Below, piece by piece: positions 22,598-56,811 of a stretch of 59,719 nt of DNA (the stretch's first letter is position 1; each line of letters begins with the position of its first letter). Where the stretch lies: the NCBI GenBank assembly GCA_964556475.1, contig CAZKVU010000005.1, forward strand, positions 1-59,719. Direction: 5' to 3'. Origin of the DNA: an uncultured Gammaproteobacteria bacterium. Its GTDB lineage: Bacteria > Patescibacteriota > Microgenomatia > UBA1406 > HO2-37-13b. The notes beneath the pieces are model-generated. The model saw only the letters and a program-made list of their open reading frames with translations. It had not been told where the DNA came from and ran no database searches. Made by a program: the position numbers and the translations under genes.

Positions 22598-22603
22598 CAG
22601 ATT

Positions 22604-29614: not shown

Positions 29615-29615
29615 T

Positions 29616-30641: not shown

Positions 30642-30643
30642 AC

Positions 30644-31795: not shown

Positions 31796-31805
31796 CAATA
31801 AAAAC

Positions 31806-32108: not shown

Positions 32109-32125
32109 CGACCAGAAGAAAAATT

Positions 32126-33067
32126 ATGTCAAAAAAGTTTATAACATATTCAGCACCGGGGAAGATAATTTTATCTGGCGAACATACCGTTTTATATGGA
32201 AAGTGTGCATTAATTTCTGCAATTGATAGAAGGCTGACGTTTTCTATTTCAGAGGGATACCAAAAGAAAGATAACAACGTAGATTTTATTGGCGATATTG
32301 TCAAAAAATACTTGGAGGAAAATTCGATACTTATACAAAAGAAACATTATCATATCAATGTAAAATCACTCATACCGCGCAACAGAGGCATGGGTTCGTC
32401 TGGAGCCTTCGCAGTAGCGGGAGTTGCAGCGTTTTTAGAGTTTTTTTCCGGTAGGAAAGATTTTGATCTTGAGGTTGTAAATAATCTGGCCTTCCAAGTA
32501 GAAAAGCGTTTTCATGGAAAACCATCTGGCGTTGATCAAACAACATCGTGCTTTGGTGGCCTTGTTTTTTTTAGAAAAGAGTTTGAGTTTCTGAAAGGCA
32601 TTTATAAACTTAACTTCAAAATTCCGAAGAATATAGGCGATGGTTTATTCTTAGTTGATTCTGGCCGCCCAAAAGAAAATACAGCAGCTATGGTGAAGCA
32701 CGTGGGCGATCTCTACAACTCAAAAACAAAACAAGCACAAGACATTATGAATGAATTAGAAAAAGTAACAAAACGGGTTGTTGTGTCTATTATGAAAGAA
32801 GATAAGAAATTTTTTGATGAAAACATTGATAAAGCTGGAGATTTACTCGATGAATTAGGTATTGTATCAGCCCAAACACGAAAAATTATCAGAGGGATCA
32901 GGCAATTTGGATCATGTAAAGTGACAGGTGCTGGTGGTGTGCAAACTCATTCCGGATTTTTGCTGTGCTCCATTCGTGATACATCTATCTTTAAGAAATA
33001 TTGTGAGGGTCAAGGTTTGAAAGTATTGAAATTTATGCCATCTCAGGATGGGCTGAAAAGGCTATGA
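32126..33067 (+). CDS. mvk: Mevalonate kinase (GHMP kinase)
   Basis: APGKIILSGEHTVLYG, GMGSSGA and KVTGAGG motifs. Confidence 0.7.
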   Translation: MSKKFITYSAPGKIILSGEHTVLYGKCALISAIDRRLTFSISEGYQKKDNNVDFIGDIVKKYLEENSILIQKKHYHINVKSLIPRNRGMGSSGAFAVAGVAAFLEFFSGRKDFDLEVVNNLAFQVEKRFHGKPSGVDQTTSCFGGLVFFRKEFEFLKGIYKLNFKIPKNIGDGLFLVDSGRPKENTAAMVKHVGDLYNSKTKQAQDIMNELEKVTKRVVVSIMKEDKKFFDENIDKAGDLLDELGIVSAQTRKIIRGIRQFGSCKVTGAGGVQTHSGFLLCSIRDTSIFKKYCEGQGLKVLKFMPSQDGLKRL

Positions 33068-33978
33068 CAATTAGATCAACCGCACCAGGTAAGCTCATTC
33101 TCCTTGGGGAACATGCTGTTGTATACGGACATCCGTGTATTATTACCGCAGTCGGTCAGGCTATACATGCTGAAGTAGCTGTCAATAACACATCTGAAGA
33201 TTTAGTTATCGCGCCACAAGTTGCCAAAACAGACTTTATTGATGAACTTGTCAAATATATGAAGAAGAAATATAACATTCAGCAGGGAATACGTATAGAA
33301 ACGCATGCGGATTTTTCAGATCAAACAGGGCTTGGATCATCATCTGCGGCAACGGTTGTCGCGTGCAAAGGTATAAATGCACTTTTCAATCTTGGTTTAT
33401 CGCAACAGGAAATATTTAATATATGTTTTGAAACGGTAGTTATGGTTCAAGGATCCGGATCGGGCGCTGATATTGCGTCTGCTGTGTATGAAGGTACTGT
33501 CTATTTCCAAAATAAAGGTGAGATCGTTGAATCTGTAAATTGTTCTGATCTACAAATTGTGATTGGAAATACATTGCATAAAGCATCAACGCGTGATTAT
33601 ATTCAGAAGGTAGCAAAGCTTCGCGAAGAGAAGCCACATTTCGTCGATTCAATTTTTCAAGGAATTGCTGAATTAGTTCATCAAGGGAGAAAACAACTTG
33701 AGGAGAAAAATTATCAGAAATTTGGAAACATCGTAAATGAGAATCAATCATTACTGCACGAGCTCGAGGTTAGCTCGGACAAACTTGATAGCATGATACA
33801 TGCGGCACGGGAAGCAGGCGCATTTGGTGCGAAATTGTCTGGCGCCGGTGGAGGCGATAATATGTTTGCTGTTGTGTCAGCTGATACAAAAAAATCCGTC
33901 GAGAAGGCAATAGAAAAAGCTGGAGGAAAAATAATTCACGTGGATATTAATTATTCATCACAAAACCCACTATCATGA
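33064..33978 (+). CDS. GHMP kinase, probable phosphomevalonate kinase (MVK-like N-terminus)
   Basis: APGKLILLGEHAVVYG, GLGSSSAA and KLSGAGGGDNMFAV (a GAGGGD motif as in bacterial PMK). 4-nt overlaps on both sides. Confidence 0.5.
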   Translation: MTIRSTAPGKLILLGEHAVVYGHPCIITAVGQAIHAEVAVNNTSEDLVIAPQVAKTDFIDELVKYMKKKYNIQQGIRIETHADFSDQTGLGSSSAATVVACKGINALFNLGLSQQEIFNICFETVVMVQGSGSGADIASAVYEGTVYFQNKGEIVESVNCSDLQIVIGNTLHKASTRDYIQKVAKLREEKPHFVDSIFQGIAELVHQGRKQLEEKNYQKFGNIVNENQSLLHELEVSSDKLDSMIHAAREAGAFGAKLSGAGGGDNMFAVVSADTKKSVEKAIEKAGGKIIHVDINYSSQNPLS

Positions 33979-34964
33979 TGAAGGCAACTGCTGTATCACA
34001 TCCTGATGTTGCTTTAATAAAATATTGGGGAAAGAAACCTGGCTTTGAGGAATTGCGTCTTCCGGCAAATGGCAGTATTTCGATGGTACTCAGCGACTTG
34101 CAAACAATAACAACTGTTGAGTTTTCTGAAAAATATTCAAATGATACCGTTATGATAGGACAAAAAGACATTCAAGGTGTGCAAAAGGAGCGTGTTTCTG
34201 AGCAACTTGATAGAATCCGGCTACAAGCGAGAATAACATTAAAAGCGCGAGTACAGTCAGAAAATAATTTTCCGATGAGCGCAGGAATTTCATCATCTGC
34301 ATCCGGACTTTCAGCGCTTACTGTTGCCGCAGCCGAAGCAGCAGGTTTACGCATGTCTAAAAAAGAACTCTCGATTTTAGCTCGCAAGGCCTCTGGATCA
34401 GCTTGTAGACCAATCATGGATGGATTTGTTGAATGGTTCGATGGAGATACTGATGAAACGTCATATGCAGAAAGTTTTTTGCCGCCAGAGCATTGGAATA
34501 TACGCGATGTTGTCGCGGTTATCAGTCATAAAGAGAAGTCTGTGCCAACCTCAGATGGTATGGCAGCTGCGGAAACAAGCCCTTTCTTCATAGAACGACT
34601 TAAAAAAATGCCGGATAAAATTAAGATCGCTAAAAAACTGATTCAGGAGAGAAATTTTCAGGAATTCGGCGAGCTTATTGAATCAGAAGCACTTGAAATG
34701 CATGCAATCGCGCTCACGTCACAACCACCATTGATATATTGGTTACCAGAGACCGTGCTTCTTATGCATGAAGTTCAACAATGGCGCAAAAATGGCCTCG
34801 AAGCTTATTTCACCATAAATACAGGCCAGAATGTGCACATCATATGTGAAGAAAAAAATGTACAGGAAGTTCAAAATCGCCTTGGTTCACTTGCCATAGT
34901 GAAAAAAATGATCGTAAATCAACCTTCAGAAGGAACGCACGTGATTGATGAACACCTTTTTTGA
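33975..34964 (+). CDS. mvaD: Diphosphomevalonate decarboxylase family enzyme
   Basis: VALIKYWGKK, GISSSASG and ASGSACRP motifs. Substrate (MVAPP versus MVAP) cannot be judged by eye. Confidence 0.75.
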   Translation: MMKATAVSHPDVALIKYWGKKPGFEELRLPANGSISMVLSDLQTITTVEFSEKYSNDTVMIGQKDIQGVQKERVSEQLDRIRLQARITLKARVQSENNFPMSAGISSSASGLSALTVAAAEAAGLRMSKKELSILARKASGSACRPIMDGFVEWFDGDTDETSYAESFLPPEHWNIRDVVAVISHKEKSVPTSDGMAAAETSPFFIERLKKMPDKIKIAKKLIQERNFQEFGELIESEALEMHAIALTSQPPLIYWLPETVLLMHEVQQWRKNGLEAYFTINTGQNVHIICEEKNVQEVQNRLGSLAIVKKMIVNQPSEGTHVIDEHLF

Positions 34965-34971
34965 GCATCAC

Positions 34972-35454
34972 CTAACAAGGCGTCTGTCTGCCGCCGCCAG
35001 CAGGAGGATTACATGGAGGAATTCCAGAGCCAGTCCCTGTTCCCGAACTGGATCCGCTTGAACTCGATTCGCCAAGTCTTGGTAGGCTAAACTTGAATCC
35101 TCCATCCGGGGTTCGTTGAATAATACCAAATACATTGGTGATAAAGAGCCACAAAGCAAGAGCGACGATCAAAACAACAATGCCAATAACTGCGTTGATA
35201 ATTTTTTGACGTGCTTTAGCTGCATTATCTGGATCACCACCTGAAGTAATATAGTCTAACGCTCCCCAGAGCATATAAATAAGCACTGCTATGCCAGCTA
35301 TAACAAATACGAATCGGATGCCAAATACGAAAACCGTTGCAAGGCTTTCTTCTACCTTTCCGTTATATAAAATTGATGGCCCAGTCTTGACTTCTACTTT
35401 ACCAAAAATATCCGCAGCATCTCTTAAGGTATTTTGAGCTTGTGCAAGCAACAT
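34972..35454 (-). CDS. T4SS-pilin-like (TrbC/VirB2-like, CPR-type) membrane protein with Gly/Ser-rich tail
   Basis: 160 aa with two TM helices flanking ITSGGDPDNAAKARQKIINAVIG, and a C-terminal SSSSGSSSGTGTGSG tail. Confidence 0.5.
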   Translation of the reverse strand: MLLAQAQNTLRDAADIFGKVEVKTGPSILYNGKVEESLATVFVFGIRFVFVIAGIAVLIYMLWGALDYITSGGDPDNAAKARQKIINAVIGIVVLIVALALWLFITNVFGIIQRTPDGGFKFSLPRLGESSSSGSSSGTGTGSGIPPCNPPAGGGRQTPC

Positions 35455-35456
35455 AA

Positions 35457-35762
35457 TTAAACAAAAACGTCAACTCCTAAAATGAAACCTAATACTTTAA
35501 CTATAACAAAACTGAGAACAATAATAATAAACCCGAAAAATGCATAAAGGAACATTGTACGGGCAGCTGCAACACGTTCTGGATCTCCACCAGCTGTAAT
35601 AATCATGAATGATGCCCTGAAGAGAATGAAAAGTAGTACAATCGCTGATCCAACAAGCAAAATCGGAATGAGAACGTTGGTGAATGTACTGATATTAACG
35701 AATCTCGCAGGAGGGAAATATGTTGGCAGTGTTTTCTCATCAACTTGCGCGAGCAGGTGCAT
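35457..35762 (-). CDS. T4SS-pilin-like (TrbC/VirB2-like, CPR-type) membrane protein
   Basis: 101 aa with two TM helices flanking ITAGGDPERVAAARTMF. Its N-terminus MHLLAQV is paralogous to MLLAQAQ of the downstream gene. Confidence 0.5.
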   Translation of the reverse strand: MHLLAQVDEKTLPTYFPPARFVNISTFTNVLIPILLVGSAIVLLFILFRASFMIITAGGDPERVAAARTMFLYAFFGFIIIVLSFVIVKVLGFILGVDVFV

Positions 35763-35799
35763 ATCTTTGAGTATACTCTATTCAAAAAAGACTATCTAG

Positions 35800-35897: not shown

Positions 35898-36593
35898 ATG
35901 AATAGTGAGCTCCCGAATCACGTCGCCCTGATTCTTGATGGTAATAGACGATGGGCAAAACAGCACCATCTTCCATCAATTGAGGGCCATAGGAAAGGAG
36001 CTGGAACAATTCGTAAAATAATTAGATATCTAGCGGCGAAAGGTGTTCATACGATAACTATTTGGATTTTTTCGACTGAGAACTGGAACAGGGATGAAGA
36101 TCAGGTACATGGATTAATGAAGCTTTTTGAGGAATTTGCAGGTGCATATTTAAAGGATGCTGAAGAAGAAGGAATGAGAATCTGTCACCTTGGTCGTAAA
36201 GATAGGTTAAGCGAATCATTGCGTAACAAAATCGCAGAATTCGAAGCAAAAACATCGCATTTTGAAAAAAATACATTAAATATTGCATTGGATTATGGAG
36301 GGAGAGATGAGCTCATTCGGGCATTTACAAAACTCTCAGAATCATCTGGTAGTGATAAGTCAATTACAGAAAAAAATATTGATGCCGCTCTTGATACAGC
36401 CGGACAAAAATATCCGAATCCTGATATGATTATTCGGACAGGTGGTGAGCAGCGTATATCCGGATTTATGCTGTGGCAGGGTGCTTATGCAGAATATTTT
36501 TTTACCGATACGCTTTTGCCGGATTTATCTGAGAATGAGATAGAGAATATGTTGTCAGAGTATGCACAACGACAGCGCAGATATGGAGCATAA
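35898..36593 (+). CDS. uppS: Isoprenyl transferase (undecaprenyl diphosphate synthase family)
   Basis: HVALILDGNRRWA and IRTGGEQRISGFMLWQ motifs. Confidence 0.85.
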   Translation: MNSELPNHVALILDGNRRWAKQHHLPSIEGHRKGAGTIRKIIRYLAAKGVHTITIWIFSTENWNRDEDQVHGLMKLFEEFAGAYLKDAEEEGMRICHLGRKDRLSESLRNKIAEFEAKTSHFEKNTLNIALDYGGRDELIRAFTKLSESSGSDKSITEKNIDAALDTAGQKYPNPDMIIRTGGEQRISGFMLWQGAYAEYFFTDTLLPDLSENEIENMLSEYAQRQRRYGA

Positions 36594-36604
36594 AATCAAT
36601 AAAA

Positions 36605-37648
36605 ATGTTTAATCCAACTTTTTCCATAACAAATAAAATACTCAAAAATATTGGAGTCATCGAGGCGTCCAGGGAAGTTATTAATGACTCTCCATTACTT
36701 CCTTTATGGGAAAAAAGATTCAAGGAAGATGCTGTTATCAGAACAGCTCATCATGGTACACATATTGAGGGAAATAGACTGAATTTAAGCGAAGCAAAAG
36801 AGGTTTTGATGGGAGGAGATGTGGTTGGGAGGGCGCGAGATGTTCAGGAAGTTATAAACTATCGCCGAACTCTGCAGGTTATTGAGGATGAAGCAGAAAG
36901 AGATATTAAAAGAATTACAGATGGGACTATCAAAAAGCTCCATAGAACAGTTGTTGCAGGGATTTTAAATCCTGAGCAGATTGGCGAATTCAGAACAAAG
37001 CAGGTTGTGATTAGAAATAGCGAGAATGGTGAGATTACTTTTCGTCCGCCTGCAGCAGTTGAAGTACCATTCCTTATTCGAGAATTTTTATACTGGCTTA
37101 ATAAGACAACTTCTGACGATTTGCACCCAGTGCTCAAAGCAGGGATAGCTCATCATGAATTAGTGCGCATTCATCCGTTTATTGACGGAAACGGACGTGT
37201 CGCTCGGGCGCTTGTCACCTTGATTTTGTATCTGGATGGGTATGATATTCGACAGTTCTTCTCACTTGAGGAATATTACGACAAAGATGCGCTCTCATAT
37301 TATGAAAATCTACAAAAGGCCTCAGGAGGGGATATCAGCGCGTGGCTTGAATATTTTGTTCTTGGTGTAGCTATAGAGTTTGAACGAATAAAGAAAAAAA
37401 TTCTGAAATTATCAAAAGATACCTATCTTAAAGAAAAACTTGGGGGGAAGCAGGTGTTTATCACCGAAAGGCAAACCCGGATTATTGAGTATATTCAGAG
37501 CGTTGGGTACGTCCAGAACAAAATGTTTGGCGATATGGTTGAAGATGTATCTGAAGATACAATTCTGCGGGATCTAACAGACCTTATTGATAAAGGAATC
37601 GTTAAGAAGGTCGGCAGCACGAAAGCCGCTCGATACGAGATGGTGTAA
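36605..37648 (+). CDS. Fic family protein (AMPylase-type) with C-terminal wHTH-like region
   Basis: Fic motif HPFIDGNGRVARA and an N-terminal GTHIEGN inhibitory-helix-like motif. Confidence 0.8.
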   Translation: MFNPTFSITNKILKNIGVIEASREVINDSPLLPLWEKRFKEDAVIRTAHHGTHIEGNRLNLSEAKEVLMGGDVVGRARDVQEVINYRRTLQVIEDEAERDIKRITDGTIKKLHRTVVAGILNPEQIGEFRTKQVVIRNSENGEITFRPPAAVEVPFLIREFLYWLNKTTSDDLHPVLKAGIAHHELVRIHPFIDGNGRVARALVTLILYLDGYDIRQFFSLEEYYDKDALSYYENLQKASGGDISAWLEYFVLGVAIEFERIKKKILKLSKDTYLKEKLGGKQVFITERQTRIIEYIQSVGYVQNKMFGDMVEDVSEDTILRDLTDLIDKGIVKKVGSTKAARYEMV

Positions 37649-37657
37649 CAATGTATT

Positions 37658-39445
37658 ATGCAATTTCAAAAACTTGCTCATTATTTTGAAAGGATTGAGG
37701 GTACGCCTTCTCGTCTGGAAATGACGAAGATCCTTGCGGATTTATTCAAGGAAATCGAATTGGACGAAATGGATAAGGTCCTGTACCTCCTTCAGGGCCG
37801 ATTGGCTCCACAATATGTTAAGATCGACTTCGGACTTGGTGAGAAAATGGTCCTTCGGTCTGTTGAGAAAGCCCTTAATGTTGATCATAAGGTTTTCATG
37901 AATGAATACAAAAAAGTTGGCGACATCGGAAAGACAGTTGAAGAATTTAAAAAATCGATACGGAGCATTATGGAGGTCGATTTAACGGTGACTCAGGTAT
38001 TTGAAAAACTTTTTCTATTAGCAAAGGCGGCTGGGGAGGGATCTCAGGATGCGAAAATATCACACTTGGTTGATTTGGTGCAATCGGTTGATGGATTGTC
38101 AGCTCGATATATCGTGCGTATTCCAACAAATACCTTAAGATTAGGTTTTTCAGACATGACCATACTTGATGCTTTTTCATGGATGCTTACCGGGGATAAA
38201 TCTTTACGAGAATCAATTCAGAAGGCTTATCATGTACGGCCAGATCTTGGTGAAATTGGAAAGATTGTAAAAAGGGACGGACTTAAAGGATTAAAGAATA
38301 TTAAGCCACATGTATTTACACCTATTCTTATGATGAAGGCACAGCGCCTTCCGACAACAAAAGATATTGTTGAAAAAATTGGGCAGGGCGTCATAGAACC
38401 AAAATATGATGGTTTCCGGTTGCAAGCTCATTATAAAAAAAACGCGAAGGGCTCTGATGTTAAACTTTTTTCTCGAGGGCTTGAGGACGTTACGTACATG
38501 TACCCAGATATTGTTGAAGGTGTAAAAAAAGAGGTGAAGGCAGATGAAATGATCCTTGAAGGTGAGGCAATTGGGTTTGACGACCATACCGGTACCTTTT
38601 TACCTTTTCAGGAAACCGTCCAGCGAAAAAGAAAATACGATATTTCGGAAAAAGCAAAAGAAATTCCACTCAAAATGTTTGTATTTGAGGTGCTCATGGT
38701 TAATGGATTGTCGCTGCTTGAAACGCCATTGAAGGATCGCGTTAAGGAGCTTCGCAAACATATCACATTACACGACGATATTTTTAAAGATACTATTTTG
38801 ATCTCTCCAGAAATTACAGCTGATAGTGAACAGCAAATCGATGTCATTTTTAATGATTCAATTTCAAAGGGATTAGAAGGTGTTATGGTAAAGAAGCTTG
38901 ATGGGACGTATCAACCAGGCGCACGAGGATGGAATTGGATTAAGTATAAACGGAGTTATTCGCACAAAATTAATGATACGATTGACTGCATTGTCATGGG
39001 GTATGATATTGGAAAAGGTAAACGGGCGGGTTTTGGCATCGGGGCATTTCTTGTAGGTGTATATGATCAGGAGTCTGATCAATTTAAAACGGTGGCAAAA
39101 ATTGGTACAGGTCTTTCTGACGATGAATGGCGAGAGCTTAAGAAGCGGTCGGATGCACTTTCTTCACAAAAAAAACCTGCATTATACGACGTTGATAAAA
39201 TTATGGACGTTGACGTGTGGGTAAAACCATATATTATTGTCGAGATTCGTGCAGATGAAATCACGCGATCAAATATGCATACTGCAGGTCGAACGCTTAA
39301 ACCTTCTAAAACAGGAAAAGCACAGGATGTCGATAATTTAGGCTATGCGTTAAGATTCCCTCGTCTGGAAAAATTCCGCACTGATAAAACACCTTCAGAT
39401 GCAACCTCTGTTGCCGAAGTACAGGCGATGTTTGAAGCAAAATAA
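37658..39445 (+). CDS. lig: ATP-dependent DNA ligase, archaeal/eukaryotic Lig1-type with N-terminal DNA-binding domain
   Basis: 595 aa with motif I EPKYDGFR, EGEAIG, EGVMVK, NWIKYK and a C-terminal OB domain. Confidence 0.85.
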   Translation: MQFQKLAHYFERIEGTPSRLEMTKILADLFKEIELDEMDKVLYLLQGRLAPQYVKIDFGLGEKMVLRSVEKALNVDHKVFMNEYKKVGDIGKTVEEFKKSIRSIMEVDLTVTQVFEKLFLLAKAAGEGSQDAKISHLVDLVQSVDGLSARYIVRIPTNTLRLGFSDMTILDAFSWMLTGDKSLRESIQKAYHVRPDLGEIGKIVKRDGLKGLKNIKPHVFTPILMMKAQRLPTTKDIVEKIGQGVIEPKYDGFRLQAHYKKNAKGSDVKLFSRGLEDVTYMYPDIVEGVKKEVKADEMILEGEAIGFDDHTGTFLPFQETVQRKRKYDISEKAKEIPLKMFVFEVLMVNGLSLLETPLKDRVKELRKHITLHDDIFKDTILISPEITADSEQQIDVIFNDSISKGLEGVMVKKLDGTYQPGARGWNWIKYKRSYSHKINDTIDCIVMGYDIGKGKRAGFGIGAFLVGVYDQESDQFKTVAKIGTGLSDDEWRELKKRSDALSSQKKPALYDVDKIMDVDVWVKPYIIVEIRADEITRSNMHTAGRTLKPSKTGKAQDVDNLGYALRFPRLEKFRTDKTPSDATSVAEVQAMFEAK

Positions 39446-48009: not shown

Positions 48010-48038
48010 TTGACGTGGAAATAATAATAAGGTATAAT
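48010..48038 (+). promoter_or_regulatory. Near-consensus sigma70 promoter TTGACG-17 nt-TATAAT
   Basis: TTGACG at 48010-48015, a 17-nt spacer and TATAAT at 48033-48038, ending 22 nt upstream of ATG 48061. Confidence 0.5.
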
Positions 48039-48060
48039 ACTATAAGTTTAGAAAACTTAA

Positions 48061-48300
48061 ATGAAAGTCTTTAATAGAAATATTAGACTTGTTAGTTTTC
48101 TACCATTCCTGGTTTTACTTCTTGCGGCCCCTCTCTTACTTCTCTTTGACACAGTCTACTACATGCTTGTTCGACCAGCTTGCTTAAATTGTGGATCACT
48201 TGGTGAGTTCGTAAAGAATGCTTCGTTAACAGTACATTTGTTTAGTACTATCGGATTTGCTGGTTTGCGTGATGTTACCAGTTTGCATAAACGATCATGA
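48061..48300 (+). CDS. Hypothetical 79-aa protein with N-terminal TM/signal-like segment
   Basis: LVSFLPFLVLLLAAPLLLLF. Its stop overlaps the start of the 1355-aa ORF (ATGA at 48297-48300). Confidence 0.4.
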   Translation: MKVFNRNIRLVSFLPFLVLLLAAPLLLLFDTVYYMLVRPACLNCGSLGEFVKNASLTVHLFSTIGFAGLRDVTSLHKRS

Positions 48301-51300
48301 CAGGAGGACCTGATGTAGCGGTGGCAACAGCAGAGGCGGTCGGAGTAATCCCGGTTGAAACAAGCACCGGAATAGCCGAACAAAGACCGCGTGATCTAAA
48401 GGCTGAATTCATTGCGCAATATGTCAGGTATGACGATGAAGGCAAACTTATTCTACCTGATGCCACACGAAATAGACTTGAAGAAATGAGGGTTCTCAAT
48501 GTTGCAGAAGCTGATACCGTACTCATTGGTAAAGGAGATGATTTTTCAAAGAATTATGTTCATGCAACAACTATCGGACTTATTGAAGCTGCAAAAGCAG
48601 GGTTGCTTCCCGATATTACTCCAGAGGCTCGGGTAATATTCACAGAATTAAGTACGCGTGCTGTTATACCTCGTTCTGGAGCACCATATTTAGCAGATAT
48701 TGTTGACGTGCTGCTTGAAGGAAACCCGTTGTTTTCTTCAGGCGATCATCCACTGACAAAATTTGAAGAAACATACATGAAGCTCGTCCCGCAGAATCCG
48801 ATTGCAGCAAAGATCATCTGGAGAGCACTTACTCAAGCTCATCGGACAAACCAAATCGTTGTTGATAAGTTTGAGGAGAAGTTTCCAAACCCGACCACGG
48901 CGATTGAACGACTAAAAGAAGCGCGTCAAAGACAACAAGCCGAGGCGGCTGGCCAAACCGGTACAACACCTAGCGATAGAACTAAGCAAGATGAGGCGCC
49001 TACTCAGAGACCAAAAACAGCACCTCGCGTAAAAACAGAGCAAGAGGTAGCGCTCGAAAAGGAGTATATGGATTTATACAGGACTGTGGCGACGCAAATA
49101 AGCGATTACGAAAAACGGGTATACAGTAAGTGGGAGCCTACTCTTGACAGTCAGAAAAGAATTATGCGGGACAAGGATGGAAATCCACTGAATCCGGCGA
49201 TATCACCTGATCGTAGAAGATTGTTAGATTCAATCCTATCACAAGGAAAATCTCCTGAAGGGTTAAGTGACGATGATAAAGAATTTTTACGATCGATTGG
49301 AATAGAGACAACGAGTCTTACACGACTAGCTTCATTATATGGAAGTGTTGGTAGTGATAGCTCATTTAGAATTGGAGAGTATACACCTATTAGAGCAATG
49401 ACGCCAGATGAAATGAAAGAGTATATAAAAGGTTTGACAAATGATGCTGAAAGAAGTGTTGGAACCGATCTTGCTGCCCCATTTGTTGAAATAACACTTA
49501 GATTTCAGAGAGATTTTGTTGAGGGGACGCCGATGTGGAAAAAATATTTAGAACAGGTACAAAATCCGCGTTTCCCAGGTGATCCAAGCAAAAAGATTTG
49601 GGTATTTAAGGAAGATCGAAACCTGCGGAAAGAATTTCAGCGTGAATTTGTTGATCGGCCGCTCTATAGCTTCTTTGAACGCATTGATAAAGACGTAACT
49701 CGAACATACAGGGATATATATAATCCCATTATTCACGGACGTTACCTGGAACATGTTATGGGTTTGTTACGAGGACTGCAAAGGAATCTTGAAGGTAAGG
49801 TGGATATAGCAAGCGGTATTGACGAACGATTTCAGAGAATCCATTTAGGAACTGACCCGACTAATAAACTGAATGTGCAAATTGGCCACTCTCTTGATTT
49901 TATGGATACCATGATTAATTATGGAAATTCATTGCAGAATTATGGACAAATCTTCCATGATCTTCCTATCTATGCTAATGATCCAAGTTCGATTGAAAAA
50001 TGGGGAGGCATGCTTGCATCACTACCTGCTTCACAACAGGCAATGTTTCTTGATGATCCATTGATTGAAATTGCTCAGTCGGTATATGGACGACATTTAC
50101 GATCGAGAATTGCACTTAATGGTGATAAAATTCCTGCCGATATTTTAGGGGGAAAGTATGATCCTGAATTGGTTAGGTCGAGCATACCAGATTTAGTAGC
50201 TGTAAGAAATGATCTTACGCGTATTGTTGAAATACGCAGACCTGAGGGTGGGAGAACAATTGAAGACTGGGAATTTGCCCGCGCAGCAACATTTGCCCGA
50301 GGTATTCAGCTACTCAATTTGAGAGCAATAGAAATTATTGGATCAGCTCGTATTGCAGATCACTATCGTGGTATTCCGGACCTCGTAGCAAAAACTTCAC
50401 AGCGTCATAAATGGAATCAGGGACGTGGAGGACAGCATAACCAGTTAACGCCGGAAGTTATTGGATCAATGTATACGAACATTAACCCAGTACGAGGAAA
50501 TTGGCTTGATAAGCTTGTTTCTCGAATGACCGCTACAAAACACGATCCAGTTGCTATCAAAAAGCTCGCAGAGGAATCATTACATGCATTTGGTCTACAA
50601 GGAATGGATTTTGATCTTACCGATCAATATTCAACATATCTTGAATTGATGAATATTTTCAATCTGGGAAGTCTATTTACCCGACAAGGATGGAGAATTC
50701 AACATATCCTCGGATATGAGGATAGGCCTGGTCACAAAGGAATTGCTGATGAAATGAAGAGCGCAGGTTTGAATAAAGGCGAAATGATGACATGGGACAG
50801 AGCTCAGTGGGGTCAATTTTACGACATTATTACGTCTCAAATTGGGTCAGGTGCGACATGGTTCTGGGGCGGGCAGGAAAATAGTCATAGTGGTTTGGCT
50901 GCCTCAATGACCGAACAACTTTTCCATCATTATGGAAAATCACAGGGTTGGAGCGATGACGAAATTCATCACAAGCAGCATTCATATTGGACTGAAGGAA
51001 AAGATACATTCAAAGTAATTGGAGTTAAAGTTCAAGGTCATCAAGAATCTGCGGCATATGCTCGACGAGAAATGGATTTAACAAGTATATACCAGCAGCA
51101 TTTACATCAGTCACGAGGTCTTCTGTTAGAACGTATGATGCGAAGGAGTCCTGGAGATTTCCTACTTACTGCAATTCAAATGGCACCTCAACTTGTCGAG
51201 TATTATAAAGATGAGGCAACGAGCGTGTGGGGTACTCCAACAGATGAAAAAATAATCAATCAGCAACGAAAGCTTATTAATCTTTTTGGTGAGCATGGAT

Positions 51301-52364
51301 TTAAACAATTGCAGGGTCTAAGGGATTGGGTTATTAAGCTTGATACAGCTTACAGTGGAGATGATCGGTTTAAAGAAGAAATAAATCCAAATTATGCTGA
51401 TCCTCAACTAAAAAGAAAGGCAATTGTTGAATTTGCCATTAAGGAATTAGGAGTGGCCCTTGAAAATACTCGTCAAATTCATGAATTGAGATCCCGTGAT
51501 GGTACTCGATCTAACGATTTAACAATGCAGCCGGATGCAATTCCTGATCATGATGGCAAAGGAACACTGCGTAAACTTGTTTTTGGGGAAGATGCAGCTG
51601 ATAAAACGGCATTACTATCAATGTGGACATCTGACGATCTTGATCATGGAGATGTTGATAAAATTAATCAAAAAAGTTTCTTTTTCGGCTTGGCCAAAGC
51701 ATGGACGACACTTAATGGTGATACTCATATAGACACAGCGGATATTGATAATTATCAAATCTATGAGGATATAGCAGGGGTAGGTGAACTCGTTATTAAA
51801 CGACTCGTGGGCGATCAGGTCGCATGGAATGAGGTTACAGAACAGTTAATGGGCATTGATGAACTTATCGAGGAGGTAGGGCGTACAGGTGAGCTGGAAC
51901 CAGTCTATGAATTGGCAAAGCATATTTTTGAGTTGCGCAAGATTATAGGGGAGGAACCTGCAAAAAAGGCAGTATATATAATGGCAAGTATGGTCGCAAC
52001 ATATATGTGGGAGCACGATTTAGCACGATTCCCGTTCATTACCAATACTCCATGGGGATTCTTCCTACAACAATCTCTAGGTGATAATATCTCTCTATCA
52101 CGACTTCGATTTGGTCGCCATGCTCATTCGATGGATACAGATCAGATCCGCTCATTTTTCCATACGTTGGGATTTGAATTAGGGGTAATTGGTACAGAGG
52201 GAAGATGGTCGTATCAACACGGAAAAGAGTCATTTGATGCAACTAATACTGAATGGTTTTTGTCAGAATTAATGGTCGGTGGAGGTCTTACTATAGCTAC
52301 GATCATCATTTATCTCATGATAAAGAAAGCTATGGAAGAGCAATCCGGAGGAGGTCATCATTAA
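48297..52364 (+). CDS. Giant (1355 aa) orphan protein, no signal peptide, single C-terminal TM (tail-anchored topology)
   Basis: Uninterrupted 4.07-kb ORF with a Q/A/T/P-rich linker near residues 210-250 and His-rich patches. The C-terminus is GGGLTIATIIIYLMIKKAMEEQSGGGHH. No motif recognised. Confidence 0.7.
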   Translation: MTGGPDVAVATAEAVGVIPVETSTGIAEQRPRDLKAEFIAQYVRYDDEGKLILPDATRNRLEEMRVLNVAEADTVLIGKGDDFSKNYVHATTIGLIEAAKAGLLPDITPEARVIFTELSTRAVIPRSGAPYLADIVDVLLEGNPLFSSGDHPLTKFEETYMKLVPQNPIAAKIIWRALTQAHRTNQIVVDKFEEKFPNPTTAIERLKEARQRQQAEAAGQTGTTPSDRTKQDEAPTQRPKTAPRVKTEQEVALEKEYMDLYRTVATQISDYEKRVYSKWEPTLDSQKRIMRDKDGNPLNPAISPDRRRLLDSILSQGKSPEGLSDDDKEFLRSIGIETTSLTRLASLYGSVGSDSSFRIGEYTPIRAMTPDEMKEYIKGLTNDAERSVGTDLAAPFVEITLRFQRDFVEGTPMWKKYLEQVQNPRFPGDPSKKIWVFKEDRNLRKEFQREFVDRPLYSFFERIDKDVTRTYRDIYNPIIHGRYLEHVMGLLRGLQRNLEGKVDIASGIDERFQRIHLGTDPTNKLNVQIGHSLDFMDTMINYGNSLQNYGQIFHDLPIYANDPSSIEKWGGMLASLPASQQAMFLDDPLIEIAQSVYGRHLRSRIALNGDKIPADILGGKYDPELVRSSIPDLVAVRNDLTRIVEIRRPEGGRTIEDWEFARAATFARGIQLLNLRAIEIIGSARIADHYRGIPDLVAKTSQRHKWNQGRGGQHNQLTPEVIGSMYTNINPVRGNWLDKLVSRMTATKHDPVAIKKLAEESLHAFGLQGMDFDLTDQYSTYLELMNIFNLGSLFTRQGWRIQHILGYEDRPGHKGIADEMKSAGLNKGEMMTWDRAQWGQFYDIITSQIGSGATWFWGGQENSHSGLAASMTEQLFHHYGKSQGWSDDEIHHKQHSYWTEGKDTFKVIGVKVQGHQESAAYARREMDLTSIYQQHLHQSRGLLLERMMRRSPGDFLLTAIQMAPQLVEYYKDEATSVWGTPTDEKIINQQRKLINLFGEHGFKQLQGLRDWVIKLDTAYSGDDRFKEEINPNYADPQLKRKAIVEFAIKELGVALENTRQIHELRSRDGTRSNDLTMQPDAIPDHDGKGTLRKLVFGEDAADKTALLSMWTSDDLDHGDVDKINQKSFFFGLAKAWTTLNGDTHIDTADIDNYQIYEDIAGVGELVIKRLVGDQVAWNEVTEQLMGIDELIEEVGRTGELEPVYELAKHIFELRKIIGEEPAKKAVYIMASMVATYMWEHDLARFPFITNTPWGFFLQQSLGDNISLSRLRFGRHAHSMDTDQIRSFFHTLGFELGVIGTEGRWSYQHGKESFDATNTEWFLSELMVGGGLTIATIIIYLMIKKAMEEQSGGGHH

Positions 52365-52399
52365 CATAACACTTGCAGTACATCTTCACCATAGTTACA

Positions 52400-53272
52400 A
52401 TGAAATGTATGCTTCAGAACTTTGTTAAAAAGTGTTTTATTGTATTTATACTTATATTTTATTCTTTTGCGCTTGTAAGTCCTATTGCCTTTGCACAAGA
52501 CGGTGATAACCCACCCGATCCACCACAAGATGAGCCATCGAATCCAGGAAGAGGGCCTGATCGTACAAAGCCGATGGCAACTGAGGGAGATAGAATTATC
52601 GGAAAAATCGGGACTGGGAAACCAAATGAAGGATGTTTGGCTCCTGTTGAGATAAAGAAGGCTGATATTGTGGACAATGTGGATTTCGATATTCCATACG
52701 TACCAGGATGGTTGGAAGGTGCTTTTCTGTCAAGCCTCACAGGATCATTAGGCGATTCGGGAGCCATTTTTAAAGACATTGAAGATAATGTTAATGCTGG
52801 ACATGACCCGAGTGTTTTGTGTTTAGAGTCTGCAACACCTAGTACAACAGACCCCGAAGAGGTTAAAGCAGGAAAATGTACATGTAACCCTAAACAAGGT
52901 TTCACGATTAAAGAAGATTTCTGTTCAAAAGTTGCCACATCTGAACAATCAAGTTGTCAAACATGCGCTCAAAGTAACGAAGGCGTTTGGACAGCCCTCG
53001 GGTGCATAAAGTTTAATTTGGGCATGTTTATTACTGGAACTCTCTTTAGGCTAAGTATAGGTATCGGTGGGATGATTGCCCTCGGATGTATTTTATATGC
53101 AACAGTTTTACTCCAAATATCGCGAGGTGAACCAGACAAAATTCAACATGCACGTGAACTTATTACATCATGTATTATTGGATTACTTTTAATTATCTTT
53201 TCAATATTTATTCTGCGCTTTGTTGGAGTCGATATATTAAAACTGCAAGATTTAGGAGCCCCGCTGAAATAG
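52400..53272 (+). CDS. Secreted Cys-rich protein fused to a C-terminal T4SS-pilin-like two-TM domain
   Basis: ATG at 52400 gives the signal peptide MKCMLQNFVKKCFIVFILIFYSFALVSPIAFAQD. The C-terminus GVWTALGCI...ISRGEPDKIQHARELITSCIIG parallels the pilins at 34972-35762. Confidence 0.55.
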   Translation: MKCMLQNFVKKCFIVFILIFYSFALVSPIAFAQDGDNPPDPPQDEPSNPGRGPDRTKPMATEGDRIIGKIGTGKPNEGCLAPVEIKKADIVDNVDFDIPYVPGWLEGAFLSSLTGSLGDSGAIFKDIEDNVNAGHDPSVLCLESATPSTTDPEEVKAGKCTCNPKQGFTIKEDFCSKVATSEQSSCQTCAQSNEGVWTALGCIKFNLGMFITGTLFRLSIGIGGMIALGCILYATVLLQISRGEPDKIQHARELITSCIIGLLLIIFSIFILRFVGVDILKLQDLGAPLK

Positions 53273-53285
53273 TCAAACGCAACAA

Positions 53286-55019
53286 TTATGGATGTGTTCC
53301 TTGGGTACCCCCAGTACCTGCAGGTGGATCAAGTGGCTTAAAATATTTTTGGAATAGTTGAGCCTGGGTTGGAGGAATCAGCCTTTCAAAGAACTTACCT
53401 TTAGGCTGGATACCCGCCAAATGTGCAATTTGACCAATTGATCCAAAAGATCCTAGACCTTGTTGTACGCCACCAGTAACCGCCGTTACGCCGCTAAAGA
53501 ACATCCCAACTCCGATATCGAGTCCGAGCTCCGGAATACCTAAGAGTCCCTTTAATAATCGAACGAGCTCAGGTATTAATAGAATGAGGCCCAATCCGAT
53601 TATTGCACCAAAATCTGCCGCAGTAAAACCTTGTCTAATAAAAGGCAAATCCAATGGAGGGATCGTTTGAGAATTATTAATTTCAATAATAAGTCTACCT
53701 GTAGCTAATACCACTGCGACTACTGGAAACGTTAATAATTCTCCAAATAATGTTTTTATCCAATAACTAAACGGGTTTTTACCTGGAATAATTTGAAAGA
53801 GTATGATTAAGGGTGCAAAAATAATGAGCAGAACCACTTTAATGTATGCACCAAGTAATAAAAAGAATAGTCTAAAGAGAAAATATAAGAGCGTAATGAG
53901 AATAAGAAATCCCATTATGTAACCTGCGGCCGTAGTTTGCGCTGATAGGATAGCAAAAACTACCGTAACGGCGAGAAAATCTAGAACCTTTGCAACTCCC
54001 CCAAAATTTATTCCGAAATTTCCTCCGAAACCTAGTGCTGATACACCTCCGCTAGCACCAAGGTCCTTAAAAATATCAGTAAATAATGAAAACTTGAAAA
54101 TATTAAATCTTATAAGCAATGCATTAACAGCACCTCCTAATATGCTATTAATACTACCTTGAATAATGGATGGCATAACGTTATAAATCGCCTTACCTGT
54201 AGAAATAGCCGACGAACCACCCTCCATTAAATTAATTGAAGCAAATCCTGAGCCAATATATCTGTTTACCATATCCAGTCTAAAAACCTCAGAAGCCTGT
54301 CCCTCAGGAAAACCAGATGCAACAATATAGACAAAAGCGCCCATGGAAGCATACATTAAATCAATCATTGCCCCAGCAATAGGGAATGATAATGTGATAA
54401 GAATTAGTGTGATAACAATTCTTGGCAATGCATTTTCTATGGTGACAAGTGTTTGCCCACCTATTTGCCATCTGAACATAATCATAAATCCAACAAATAC
54501 CAAGAGCAGAACAATGAGTAAATAGCTAAAGTTTCTAAAAACTTCCCAAATTTTAAGATACCCTCTAATTGAGGCAAGTCCTACACCTTCATAAGCATAG
54601 GTTTGGGGAATAAAGTCATTATTTTGTAATTTATACATTGCGTAAGAAACTCCTGATGCCGGGACTTTTTCAACAGGTGCTGTTAATAATGGCGTTAGAT
54701 ATCCGAGGACACTCATTTGATGATTTTCCTCAGCTGTGCCTTTAGAACATTGTTCGCCGACAAATCCGCATAGCAGAGCTTTATAACGTGCTATTTTTAT
54801 TACTTTCTCCTGTTTGGTAAAGGATGGGTCATTTTGGAATTCCTTAATGAAGTTATCAGAGCTTGTTTTGAGGGAGTAAATTTCAGGTTTGTATTGAGCA
54901 GTGTTTTTAGGCTTAGTAAGATAAAAGTATGCGTTAATGATTGTCACAAGAACGCCGGTTAATACAAAACCAAATAAGAGTACTTTTTGTACCCTCTTAA
55001 GAAGCTTTAGAATCCTCAT
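53286..55019 (-). CDS. Large polytopic membrane protein (possibly VirB6/TrbL-like)
   Basis: 577 aa with about 10 or more hydrophobic segments and Gly-rich stretches (GASGGVSALGFGGNFGINFGG). The assignment is based on context only. Confidence 0.5.
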   Translation of the reverse strand: MRILKLLKRVQKVLLFGFVLTGVLVTIINAYFYLTKPKNTAQYKPEIYSLKTSSDNFIKEFQNDPSFTKQEKVIKIARYKALLCGFVGEQCSKGTAEENHQMSVLGYLTPLLTAPVEKVPASGVSYAMYKLQNNDFIPQTYAYEGVGLASIRGYLKIWEVFRNFSYLLIVLLLVFVGFMIMFRWQIGGQTLVTIENALPRIVITLILITLSFPIAGAMIDLMYASMGAFVYIVASGFPEGQASEVFRLDMVNRYIGSGFASINLMEGGSSAISTGKAIYNVMPSIIQGSINSILGGAVNALLIRFNIFKFSLFTDIFKDLGASGGVSALGFGGNFGINFGGVAKVLDFLAVTVVFAILSAQTTAAGYIMGFLILITLLYFLFRLFFLLLGAYIKVVLLIIFAPLIILFQIIPGKNPFSYWIKTLFGELLTFPVVAVVLATGRLIIEINNSQTIPPLDLPFIRQGFTAADFGAIIGLGLILLIPELVRLLKGLLGIPELGLDIGVGMFFSGVTAVTGGVQQGLGSFGSIGQIAHLAGIQPKGKFFERLIPPTQAQLFQKYFKPLDPPAGTGGTQGTHP

Positions 55020-55070
55020 TGTAAATTCATTGTAGAAGAATTACGCAGTATATGTCAATCGAGGATTGTT

Positions 55071-55562
55071 TTATGGGTACGTTATGTTTAAAGTAGCTAT
55101 TTGAGCATCAGAAAGACCGATTGACTTCATCCAACTTAATGCATTTTTTTGGGCCGTTGTTGAATTATTTTTACTTGAAACAATAAACGTTATTGTTTCA
55201 TTATTCCCTTCACCTAATACTGCCTTCATTGAGAATGACGCTTCTTCATGAGGAAGTTTATTAAAAAGATATGCATCAGGGCTATTTTCGAGTTGTGATT
55301 TATCAATTTGTTCATCATCGTCAATCCTTTTGCTGTAATCAAGGTCAATCGGTGATTCTGTTGGCGAGGGGTTTTGACTATTATTTTGCTGCAGGATATT
55401 ATCGCTATTTTGAATGAGCGTTTTTGTCGGCGTGCGATTAACATCACTAAGTGACGAATTTATTTTTTTTTCAGTGCGCTTATTAAGGATAAAGAATAAA
55501 GTAAGTATAAATATAAAGAAAATAATAAGAGCAATTCCCGATAAAATGAGTTTGTTTCTCAT
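55071..55562 (-). CDS. Hypothetical membrane-anchored protein
   Basis: 163 aa with an N-terminal TM and an Asn/Ser/Gln-rich linker. No family recognised. Confidence 0.45.
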   Translation of the reverse strand: MRNKLILSGIALIIFFIFILTLFFILNKRTEKKINSSLSDVNRTPTKTLIQNSDNILQQNNSQNPSPTESPIDLDYSKRIDDDEQIDKSQLENSPDAYLFNKLPHEEASFSMKAVLGEGNNETITFIVSSKNNSTTAQKNALSWMKSIGLSDAQIATLNITYP

Positions 55563-55569
55563 AGTTATA

Positions 55570-56811
55570 TTATAGTCTTAGAAAACCACCAAAACTTGAA
55601 TCATTTGTTGTATACATTCTAGCGTTAAGACGAGCACATCCACTGCATCCCCTATTTGCTTCTGCGACAAAGAATTTATTGCCATCGACTACTCGAGTAA
55701 CGTATGCAATATGCCCACAATCTTGATAAGGCTTTCCATCAGGTGCACAATTAACACCGGTATGTGTCCAGACTGCTAAATCATTAACTTGAGGTTTCCC
55801 GCCTGAGGCTGCGCTGAAATAGGTGTATGGCGACCTGTTCGCTGCATACGAAGCTGCATTACCCGTGTGATTTGAATTTAAACCTTGCTGAGCTGCGATT
55901 GCTCCTTTGACAAAACCAACGCATTGTAATCCACCAATAGAATGAAATGCGTTAGCTGAATTCATGATTTTTGTTTGGGCGAGTTCGTCATTTTTAGATC
56001 CAATGGTAAATCCTTTCATACACAATGAGTTTTTTCCATCAACCCTTCCACCCGAACATTGCTGCATAATAAATTCTGCGAGTTTGTTTGCAAAGTTGGC
56101 ATCAGCACTAGATGGCGCTTTTGGTTGGGGGGGTGTAGGGTTTTCTGGTGAAGGACCTCCAGGTGTTACAGTCGGTGGATTGGATGCCTTTTTTGATCTT
56201 TCAGCCGCTCCGTCTTCTCCTTCACATTTGTAGAAATTGCAATAGACGTCGTTAATAATATCAACAGAACCATTCTCTGACGTTGATAAATTAAACAGAT
56301 TAGCCCCTCCTAAAGGGTCGCTATTAGTGCATCGCGTACCTGTATCGATTACAGAACGAGAAAGCAACTCAGGTCCTTCATATAGCTCTAATTCAACAGT
56401 TCCGCAATTAACACTTTGATGTTTAACCGAATGAATGGATTCAGCAGCACTTATTGTTAAGTTACCATGATCAAGTTCGTGATTGAAATTAACTCTTTTA
56501 TTTTGTTCACACTTTGAGTCGTAGCTTTGATTGTAGACTTCATCTGATAAATCGCACCAGTTAATTTTATACTCAAGATTGGTAGTATTTGAGAAATGTT
56601 TAGCAAAAACAGCCACGCTCCATTCCCATTCTTTAGTAGTAGACTTTGGTGCTGAAACTATGCGAAATTGAACATCATAATTTTCACTTGCACTGGCGCT
56701 TCCTGTTATATCTTGAATGTACTGAAATCCAGCATATCCAATGGTCACAACAAAAATCGCCAAAAAAGGTATGAGATTTTTGAAAATATTTTTATTGCTT
56801 AGATTGTCCAT
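55570..56811 (-). CDS. CHAP-domain peptidoglycan hydrolase with N-terminal TM and unknown Cys-containing domain
   Basis: 413 aa with a Pro-rich linker (PPTVTPGGPSPENPTPPQPK). The C-terminal CHAP-like domain has the nucleophile GGLQCVGFVKG and His in CGHIAYV. Confidence 0.65.
   Translation of the reverse strand: MDNLSNKNIFKNLIPFLAIFVVTIGYAGFQYIQDITGSASASENYDVQFRIVSAPKSTTKEWEWSVAVFAKHFSNTTNLEYKINWCDLSDEVYNQSYDSKCEQNKRVNFNHELDHGNLTISAAESIHSVKHQSVNCGTVELELYEGPELLSRSVIDTGTRCTNSDPLGGANLFNLSTSENGSVDIINDVYCNFYKCEGEDGAAERSKKASNPPTVTPGGPSPENPTPPQPKAPSSADANFANKLAEFIMQQCSGGRVDGKNSLCMKGFTIGSKNDELAQTKIMNSANAFHSIGGLQCVGFVKGAIAAQQGLNSNHTGNAASYAANRSPYTYFSAASGGKPQVNDLAVWTHTGVNCAPDGKPYQDCGHIAYVTRVVDGNKFFVAEANRGCSGCARLNARMYTTNDSSFGGFLRL

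Follow-up and report, generated by a model that had tools for sequence, protein, structure and literature searches.

A conserved pilin, membrane-protein and wall-hydrolase locus of Roizmanbacteria-type genomes, a candidate half of a split type IV secretion system

We analysed a DNA stretch of 59,719 nt from contig CAZKVU010000005.1 (the window, in whose positions all coordinates are given), and in particular its region 48010-56811. This region encodes six proteins in two convergent arms. The plus arm carries the genes of a small membrane protein (p79), of a very large protein (the giant) and of a pilin fusion; the minus arm carries those of a polytopic membrane protein, of a small bitopic protein (p163) and of a cell-wall hydrolase. 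An initial annotation had proposed that these genes form an envelope or secretion module of an episymbiotic Candidate Phyla Radiation (CPR) cell, with some parts resembling those of type IV secretion systems (T4SS). The features of the region, followed by two pilin genes found elsewhere in the window, are listed below with protein lengths in amino acids (aa). In the text, labels such as L001 or L091 designate related genomic loci, whereas p79, p105, p145, p163 and p220 designate families of small proteins.

48010-48038, plus strand: putative sigma-70-like promoter, TTGACG-17-TATAAT, matching the consensus at 11 of 12 positions
48061-48300, plus strand: p79, 79 aa, small membrane protein with a CxxC motif, coupled to the giant gene by an ATGA overlap
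48297-52364, plus strand: giant, 1355 aa, almost wholly alpha-helical, clade-specific family
52373-53272, plus strand: pilin fusion, 299 aa, with a signal peptide, a Cys-rich head and a T4SS_pilin domain
53286-55019, minus strand: polytopic Gly-rich membrane protein, 577 aa, candidate divergent VirB6-type subunit
55058-55029, minus strand: second promoter-like site, TTGACA-18-TACAAT, 11 of 12 consensus positions, directly upstream of the gene of the 577-aa protein
55071-55562, minus strand: p163, bitopic protein of 163 aa, p145 family
55570-56811, minus strand: membrane-anchored Cys-rich CHAP peptidoglycan hydrolase, 413 aa, candidate for a VirB1-type role
34972-35454 and 35460-35777, minus strand: two short T4SS_pilin genes, 160 aa and 106 aa, matching PF18895 with 34.1 and 28.1 bits

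We recovered all six open reading frames (ORFs) of the initial annotation at identical coordinates. The promoter motif that it reported upstream of p79 is present too; it falls within the 137-nt gap that follows jag/khpB and ranks first among the sites between 47800 and 57000. Promoter-like sites are not enriched in the region (32, against 26.7 +/- 4.9 in shuffled sequences). Both of the reported junctions on the plus arm were also seen, namely the ATGA overlap between p79 and the giant, and the TTG codon (52373) that occurs 8 nt after the TAA ending the giant gene at 52364. ATG codons follow at 52400 and 52409, and one of these two is the likely start of the pilin fusion. The genes of p163 and of the hydrolase are separated by 7 nt, which, together with the ATGA overlap and the 8-nt gap of the other arm, makes for tight packing. 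Only 13 nt, without a terminator hairpin, separate the stop codons of the two arms (53272 and 53286), so that convergent transcripts would overlap. The GC content of the region equals that of the rest of the window. The sign of the GC skew flips at the convergent junction of the arms, at about 53000-54000.

Products of the locus

The 299-aa product had been described as a Cys-rich protein with a signal peptide and a VirB2-like two-helix C-terminus, and our profile searches agree. Residues 223-283 match the Pfam family T4SS_pilin (PF18895) with 26.5 bits, against a cut-off of 26.6, and the protein scores 122 bits with a profile that we made from 129 C-terminal pilin domains of related loci. It combines the signal peptide and the two hydrophobic helices that characterise VirB2-like pilins: the N-terminus is signal-peptide-like, and the helices lie at residues 223-241 and 263-281. 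The two-helix domain is preceded by a Cys-rich head of about 170 aa that is predicted to be extracellular; the whole protein has 12 Cys. The two short pilins encoded at 34972-35454 and 35460-35777 score above the Pfam cut-off and reach 87 and 76 bits with the family profile. Their genes lie some 13 kb away from the module, with a mevalonate operon on one side and uppS on the other, hence pilin genes are scattered among housekeeping genes. These short pilins are possibly subunits of the same apparatus.

Around the short pilin genes, positions 28490-34964 of the plus strand hold an apparently near-complete mevalonate pathway operon, with genes for an HMG-CoA reductase, an HMG-CoA synthase-like protein, a thiolase, two GHMP kinases and a diphosphomevalonate decarboxylase. 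Further on lie uppS (35898-36593), a gene for a Fic protein (36605-37648) and one for an ATP-dependent DNA ligase (37658-39445).

The 577-aa protein is indeed polytopic and Gly-rich, as had been noted, with about 8-10 hydrophobic segments, 10.7% Gly and two Cys. The alignment of its family shows conserved motifs; the family profile retrieved nothing meaningful among the sequences of the PDB. We obtained an AlphaFold2 (AF2) model of moderate quality, with a predicted local distance difference test score (pLDDT) of 62. Its seven best Foldseek matches were all either TrwI/VirB6 of plasmid R388 or DotA, and they were weak (E 0.16-1.3, the top ones 0.16-0.6). The fold search proposed in the initial annotation thus returned no unrelated housekeeping family; the closest structures that it gave, those of VirB6/TrwI, are weakly similar to the model.

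The p163 protein is anchored in the membrane by one N-terminal transmembrane (TM) helix, as had been suggested, after which come a linker and, at the C-terminus, a domain of about 70 aa; the protein contains no Cys. It matches, with an E-value of 1.4e-24, the profile of the p145 proteins, which are roughly 145 aa long and are encoded directly upstream of the polytopic gene in relatives. It has no Pfam family and gave weak sub-threshold matches only. The same arrangement of TM helix, linker and domain constitutes the N-terminus of many of the neighbouring hydrolases, of whose N-terminal module p163/p145 is a paralogue. Sequence family scans of 36 members of p79, p163/p145 and p105 revealed no match to PrgI, VirB3 or VirB8.

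The assignment of the 413-aa product to the CHAP peptidoglycan hydrolases rests on a match above the curated Pfam threshold (PF05257, 37.4 bits against a cut-off of 26, residues 294-386). The protein has 13 Cys and one N-terminal TM helix. A hydrolase is kept at this position in relatives, as would be the case for a VirB1-type component. Its catalytic domain is of the CHAP type in the lineage of the window and Peptidase_C39_2-like in most lineages. That catalytic domains were exchanged at a fixed slot while the N-terminal module stayed common speaks for a functional need of a wall hydrolase there.

The giant had been reported to lack any recognisable domain and to have a single C-terminal TM helix. 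Family scans and hydrophobicity support both statements: it has no match in Pfam, NCBIfam, PHROG or among PDB sequences, and its one hydrophobic helix (1324-1342) is followed by a Lys-rich tail. A Pfam scan of 34 giants showed no recurrent family. A word-index search with the giant, alone or as a 34-sequence profile, returned only itself and one relative at 84% identity, and delineating its family required an exhaustive HMMER search of 1.84 billion protein representatives. This search identified 73 representatives, nearly all of 1100-1400 aa. The giant is thus an orphan in so far as it has no relative outside its own family, but this family exists and always occupies the same position. The proteins encoded at that position in relatives are homologous to the giant (e.g., 25% identity over 870 residues, E 3e-69). 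The residues conserved among them are Trp, Arg, Gly and Pro at dispersed positions, with a GWR motif among these.

We modelled residues 156-1355 of the giant with AF2 from a 60-sequence alignment, and obtained a pLDDT of 85 and a predicted template modelling score (pTM) of 0.79. Helices make up nearly the whole of this model, which has a few short hairpins and no sheet of the nucleotide-binding type. The fold search suggested in the initial annotation, which we ran with the whole model, found no structural relative: the best match had an E-value of 0.039 and a probability of 0.14 in the PDB, where TM-scores did not exceed 0.11, and an E-value of 0.0096 and a probability of 0.21 in BFVD. We rejected the idea that the giant is a degenerate VirB4 or another NTPase, given that the family has no conserved P-loop and the model no RecA-like or Rossmann-like sheet.

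The giants are strongly depleted in Cys, with a median of one per roughly 1230 residues against eight in the valyl-tRNA synthetase (ValRS), whereas the secreted neighbours are Cys-rich; the giant of the window has none. Throughout the family a tail of 6-20 residues, rich in Lys and Arg, comes after the C-terminal helix. The positive-inside rule would place this tail in the cytoplasm, yet there is no N-terminal signal peptide, which conflicts with a simple tail-anchored topology. As a working assumption, we treat the giant as a membrane-tethered cytoplasmic protein. The p79 protein has one TM helix (residues 10-28) and a motif, LP....FD...CLxCG..EF..SSL, that is kept in 33 related loci. It belongs to no Pfam family and matches neither PrgI nor VirB3, with just weak sub-threshold matches.

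Conservation and gene order in related genomes

A word search with the 577-aa protein found 27 homologues, and a search of 185,579 species genomes found 340 relatives. The best 80 of these 340 belong almost all to Candidatus Roizmanbacteria, Microgenomates or the Patescibacteria group, in line with the CPR-type organism inferred in the initial annotation; the window is thus of Candidatus Roizmanbacteria or Microgenomatia type. Many public records of metagenome-assembled genomes that carry a Roizmanbacteria-type locus (L008, L009, L012, L013 and others) are titled "uncultured Gammaproteobacteria bacterium", and the titles of L083 and L069 name Limisphaerales in one case and Saccharibacteria in the other. 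Such titles suggest that the records were mislabelled or mis-binned.

We called the ORFs of all fetched loci and classed them by phmmer and BLAST clustering; the counts below are over 86 sources. The canonical map comprises a DUF2298 gene and the series valS-rpmH-yidC-jag-(p79)-giant-pilin fusion, convergent with polytopic-p145-hydrolase. The convergent pilin adjoins the polytopic gene in 80 of 83 sources, a convergent giant occurs in 72, and a p145-type gene immediately precedes the polytopic one in 64 of 81. A hydrolase is found upstream of the polytopic gene in 49 of the 86 sources, p79 in 33, p220 in 34, and a ClpC-like gene within six genes in 45. The order of giant and pilin against polytopic protein, anchor and hydrolase, whose conservation across CPR genomes the initial annotation had left to be checked, is therefore kept. 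The proteins themselves are divergent: among related loci the polytopic proteins are merely 30-36% identical, and the giants 12-25%. In about 80 species-level genomes the module occupies one and the same insertion site, between jag and rmlA/clpC. Four loci (L025, L026, L032 and L039) show an inversion that leaves all the parts adjacent.

Most relatives have a divergent block after the hydrolase that consists of genes for a ClpC-like protein, p105, p220 and a short pilin (e.g., L007:3186-8363; about 45 loci). Beyond it lie a gene for a fusion of an amino-acid kinase and a methyltransferase, and then recF; these are the genes of 444 aa and 347 aa that might be taken for dnaA and dnaN beside the module, an assignment that we rejected. 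The block is absent from the window, from its close relatives L001 and L088-L090, and from L030, L044 and L085; in all of these rmlA abuts the hydrolase. The ClpC-like protein has the full Clp/Hsp100 domain set, with an N-terminal extension of ~240 aa and a C-terminal zinc ribbon. In L057, L012, L041 and L020 its gene is missing while p105, p220 and the second pilin remain, which makes it a probable housekeeping neighbour. The p105 protein has a single TM helix and an N-terminal NYTPL motif. The p220 family shows an invariant PGTxxHExxH motif and a FSSxQDLxD motif; 12 of 20 members match Peptidase_M50 and 10 of 20 match M50B (best E 1.9e-6), and the family profile found nothing meaningful among PDB sequences. 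Judging by these motifs and by its place beside the short pilin, p220 could be an M50B-like intramembrane metalloprotease that processes the pilin.

Two distant loci place the polytopic family in another context. The L091 protein P0025 is a clear member of the family (E 1.4e-72 against the family profile). It is encoded in a run with a T4SS_pilin (52 bits) and a Cys-rich protein of 1076 aa, and a convergent pair of genes has products of 379 and 1251 aa. The other run comprises PrgI/VirB3 (27.6 bits), a TraC-like protein, VirB4 and an M23 hydrolase. The VirB4 matches P-loop_TraG with 102 bits and AAA_10 with 49 bits, and it carries the Walker A motif GKSGSGKS. Pilin, polytopic protein, PrgI, TraC-like protein and VirB4 are all within 14 kb, hence the polytopic family occurs inside a recognisable Patescibacteria T4SS cluster. 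In L092, the gene of the other distant member comes after an array of pilin genes, and a gene for a protein of 1121 aa converges on it. The large proteins encoded convergently in L091 and L092 showed no homology to the giant. Together with the fold similarity, these data make the 577-aa protein a candidate for a divergent VirB6-type channel or platform subunit.

Both distant loci also encode, after the pilins and before the polytopic gene, a Cys-rich protein of 1076-1175 aa with 25-30 Cys (L091:625-3855, L092:4149-7676), and the two have similar C-terminal sequences. As separate polypeptides, they may correspond to the head that the 299-aa protein carries fused to its pilin domain.

Energy source and competing explanations

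The initial annotation had seen no VirB4/VirD4-type Walker A motif in the ORFs of the region, and we likewise found none in the six products. A loose Walker A pattern matched, in the whole window, a UvrD-type helicase (8323-10041, P-loop at residue 22) and the two small ORFs 21796-22410 and 23120-23536. Beside the helicase, on the minus strand, lies an ORF of 440 aa (10046-11368) without a Pfam match. In 85 related Roizmanbacteria-type loci there is no VirB4-like P-loop protein within +/-10 kb. Of the subunits expected with a T4SS, no VirB4 was found among the scanned proteins of the window, and family scans recognised neither a VirB3/PrgI nor a VirB8/PrgL in p79 and p163. Of the genes expected in a conjugative element, the window has no integrase, no relaxase and no coupling protein (VirD4/TcpA), and its context is not that of a mobile element; its sole tRNA gene (tRNA-Gln, 22527-22598) is far from the region. 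The lack of a relaxase, which had been noted before, extends to the ~10 kb downstream in close relatives. The initial annotation had allowed that a complete canonical T4SS might adjoin the region and make it an ordinary conjugation locus. We found none in the window, and the flanks are housekeeping genes, which argues against such a locus.

Published inventories indicate that the ATPases exist in related genomes. Six of the seven module-bearing Roizmanbacteria genomes are VirB4-positive in Table S1 of PMC12102498. For one genome, GWA2_35_19, Table S3 of the same study lists TrsD (KKP70651), VirB4 (KKP70652), one VirB2 and two type IV coupling proteins (T4CPs), and it lists no VirB6, B3, B8 or B1. 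The module of GWA2_35_19 corresponds to the consecutive accessions KKP72873-72884 on the 31-kb contig UR68_C0011; its specific parts are annotated as hypothetical, and none of its proteins is given in Table S3 as a T4SS part (PMC12102498). As KKP70651-2 are far from KKP72873-72884, the TrsD-VirB4 pair is probably on another contig.

On balance, we think that the region is probably the membrane-and-pilus half of a Patescibacteria-type T4SS that is chromosomally fixed in the Roizmanbacteria lineage and whose ATPase genes are encoded apart. The giant, p79, the p163 family and the divergent VirB6-like protein are most likely clade-specific parts of this split locus. The T4SS-like parts recognised in the initial annotation are all present: the pilin domain of the VirB2 type, the CHAP hydrolase and the polytopic protein. 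Its preference for an uncharacterised appendage over a T4SS is disfavoured by the L091 cluster, by the VirB4-positive relatives and by the known occurrence of relaxase-less T4SSs in Patescibacteria. The evidence favours a split T4SS over a new apparatus devoid of ATPase and over a group of unrelated neighbours.

Several observations weigh against a split T4SS. VirB4, VirD4, VirB3 and TrsD were not found among the scanned proteins of the 59.7-kb window, and no ATPase or relaxase is encoded within about 10 kb downstream in close relatives. One module-bearing draft genome, GWC1_37_12, is listed as VirB4-negative (PMC12102498). No Pfam family, including TrbL/VirB6, matched any of 17 members of the polytopic family; hhalign found nothing between the profile of this family and TrwI of R388; and the Foldseek matches to TrwI and DotA, made with a model of pLDDT 62, have TM-scores of 0.27-0.44 and probabilities of 0.63-0.66. 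A single lineage, that of L091, links VirB4 physically to the polytopic family. Among described T4SSs, no counterpart was recognised for the giant by family and fold scans, or for p79 and p163 by family scans. Finally, the synteny of the housekeeping genes valS, yidC and jag is no less strong than that of the module, so that conserved order alone is no proof of function.

The absence of ATPases in the window, in the ~10 kb downstream in close relatives and within +/-10 kb in the 85 loci, together with the one draft genome listed without VirB4, would also be expected of an autonomous surface appendage or contact apparatus that uses T4SS-type pilins and works independently of VirB4/VirD4. The giant and p79 would there replace the cytoplasmic platform: the pair precedes the pilin much as VirB3-VirB4 accompany VirB2, and the confident model of the giant has no fold match in the PDB or BFVD. 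We regard such an apparatus as unlikely, though credible. The giant has no nucleotide-binding fold or NTPase motif, which leaves the source of energy unexplained, most module-bearing genomes have VirB4 and coupling proteins, and VirB3/VirB4 share a cluster with one polytopic-family protein. We are equally doubtful of two specific roles for the giant, either as the engine or platform, in the cytoplasm, of a pilus machine that works without VirB4 and in which p79 would be VirB3-like, or as a very large exported substrate. In the latter case the giant would be exported and its C-terminal helix inserted in the host membrane, which would amount to a contact or feeding device not described so far.

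Could the genes encode separate envelope functions that are found together merely through a frozen yidC-jag gene order? The genes valS, rpmH, yidC, jag, DUF2298, recF and the ClpC-like gene are equally fixed in position, as this would predict. The tight packing and the coupled starts (ATGA overlap, 8-nt gap, 7-nt gap) speak against it, as do the replacement of the hydrolase domain at the same slot and the inversion in L025, L026, L032 and L039, which keeps the parts adjacent. Moreover, L091 and L092, which lie outside the yidC context, again combine pilins, a polytopic protein and large proteins. We consider a frozen neighbourhood of this kind quite improbable.

By analogy with ClpV in type VI secretion, the driver might instead of VirB4 be a ClpC/ClpB-type AAA+ unfoldase. 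This is very unlikely here, since the window and its lineage lack the block altogether, the gene is missing in four loci that keep p105, p220 and the second pilin (L057, L012, L041 and L020), and the protein has the domain set of an ordinary Clp/Hsp100 chaperone. What suggested it was a long ClpC-like protein that most relatives encode beside the hydrolase, in one operon with p105, p220 and the second pilin, the presence of its gene within six genes in 45 sources, its overlapping or tightly packed starts with p105, p220 and the second pilin, the unusual N-terminal extension of ~240 aa and C-terminal zinc ribbon, and the neighbour p220 with its invariant HExxH and Peptidase_M50/M50B matches. 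A remnant of an integrated conjugative element, which the T4SS-type parts and the CHAP hydrolase typical of Gram-positive conjugation might evoke, is barely conceivable in view of the missing integrase, relaxase and coupling protein, the distant tRNA-Gln, a GC content equal to that of the flanks and a site identical in about 80 species-level genomes.

If the region is half of a split T4SS, its parts might act as follows. The anchored CHAP hydrolase would open the cell wall locally, as VirB1-type hydrolases do in Gram-positive T4SSs. The 577-aa protein would be a membrane platform or channel like VirB6, as its weak fold similarity and the relative encoded beside VirB3/VirB4 suggest, and p163 may be an accessory of this platform, given their fixed adjacency and the domain that it has in common with the hydrolase N-termini. 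The short pilins and the 299-aa pilin would be fed into the platform and assembled into a surface filament or contact structure, in which the Cys-rich head of the latter could serve as an adhesive or tip subunit. The clade-specific partners p79 and giant, presumably co-transcribed with the pilin, would most likely form a membrane-tethered cytoplasmic scaffold. Energy would be provided by TrsD-VirB4 and coupling-protein ATPases encoded elsewhere in the genome, to judge from related genomes. Given that there is no relaxase, the system would probably serve the host contact or protein exchange of an episymbiont, and not conjugation.

The T4SS is indispensable to the epibiotic growth of the sole cultivated Patescibacterium in which this was tested. 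A split T4SS would provide candidates for the missing membrane parts of Microgenomatia systems and would mean that the system is split across the Roizmanbacteria chromosome. Our analysis adds four conserved unannotated families, i.e., the giant, p79, the p145/p163 module and, in relatives, the M50B-like protease beside a short pilin. They are targets for structural and localisation work on the contact between CPR bacteria and their hosts in cells that are uncultivated.

Comparison with known systems

Two types of surface filament do not account for the locus. The six products have no P-loop and no Pfam or NCBIfam match to the PilB/GspE ATPase, PilC platform, prepilin peptidase or pilins with class III signal peptides of a type IV pilus or type II secretion system. 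The Pam pilus is a CPR-specific surface filament that also occurs in Microgenomatia and has no dedicated ATPase (Troman et al. 2026, bioRxiv 10.64898/2026.03.03.709456). Its pilins are Ig-like beta-sandwiches that assemble by donor-strand exchange with anchored PapD/FimC-like chaperones, whereas those of the locus are two-helix hairpins of the VirB2 type. It was rejected as an explanation, as the two have no component in common and no product of the locus matches a chaperone or Ig-type family.

The Gram-positive T4SSs of the mating pair formation class FATA (MPF-FATA), such as pCF10 Prg/Pcf, pIP501 Tra and pCW3 Tcp, resemble the locus in several respects: a monoderm envelope, a CHAP hydrolase of the VirB1 type, a polytopic subunit (in the locus a candidate VirB6 type) and small bitopic accessory proteins. 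They differ in being carried by mobile elements that encode VirB4, VirD4 and a relaxase, and in having no VirB2 pilins. The locus, in contrast, has pilins, no ATPase or relaxase, and housekeeping flanks. At the level of single components, VirB6/TrwI of R388 (7o3v, 8rt9) and DotA of Legionella (9ngy) are, like the 577-aa protein, multi-helix inner-membrane proteins, and they stand at the base of the pilus or stalk. TrwI is about 230 residues shorter than the 577-aa protein and has no sequence or profile similarity to it.

The closest parallel is with the T4SSs of Patescibacteria, which are relatives of monoderm MPF-FATA systems with VirB2-like PF18895 pilins and without relaxase (Quinonero-Coronel et al. 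2025, PMC12102498). Relaxase-less chromosomal T4SSs with VirB2-like pilins are the described norm in this group (PMC12102498, PMC10633639, PMC12857230), and their genes are often near dnaA, rpmH and rnpA (PMC12102498). In Southlakia epibionticum, the T4SS and a pilin array are essential (Wang et al. 2023, PMC10633639; PMC12857230). The locus differs from these systems in having no VirB3/PrgI, TrsD or VirB4, in a polytopic protein that escapes the VirB6, TrbL and PrgH profiles, in a pilin with a Cys-rich head, and in the giant, p79 and the p163 family, which are not among the described components. It has in common with the Southlakia system of the SEML1_0006-0019 type the PF18895 VirB2-like pilins in a monoderm, a wall hydrolase and a polytopic protein, here a candidate VirB6 type. 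With Patescibacteria T4SSs in general it shares the lack of a relaxase, the presence of hypothetical proteins among recognisable parts, and a chromosomal site near rpmH; published loci are near the replication origin (beside rpmH and dnaA in the survey, genes 0006-0019 in Southlakia), and here it is the rpmH neighbourhood alone that we saw. A dispersed organisation has been reported in Microgenomatia, where VirB3 and VirB1 are mostly unlinked to virB4 (PMC12102498). In the same bacteria VirB6 is "scarce", "suggesting extreme sequence divergence" (PMC12102498), a gap that the polytopic family would fill.

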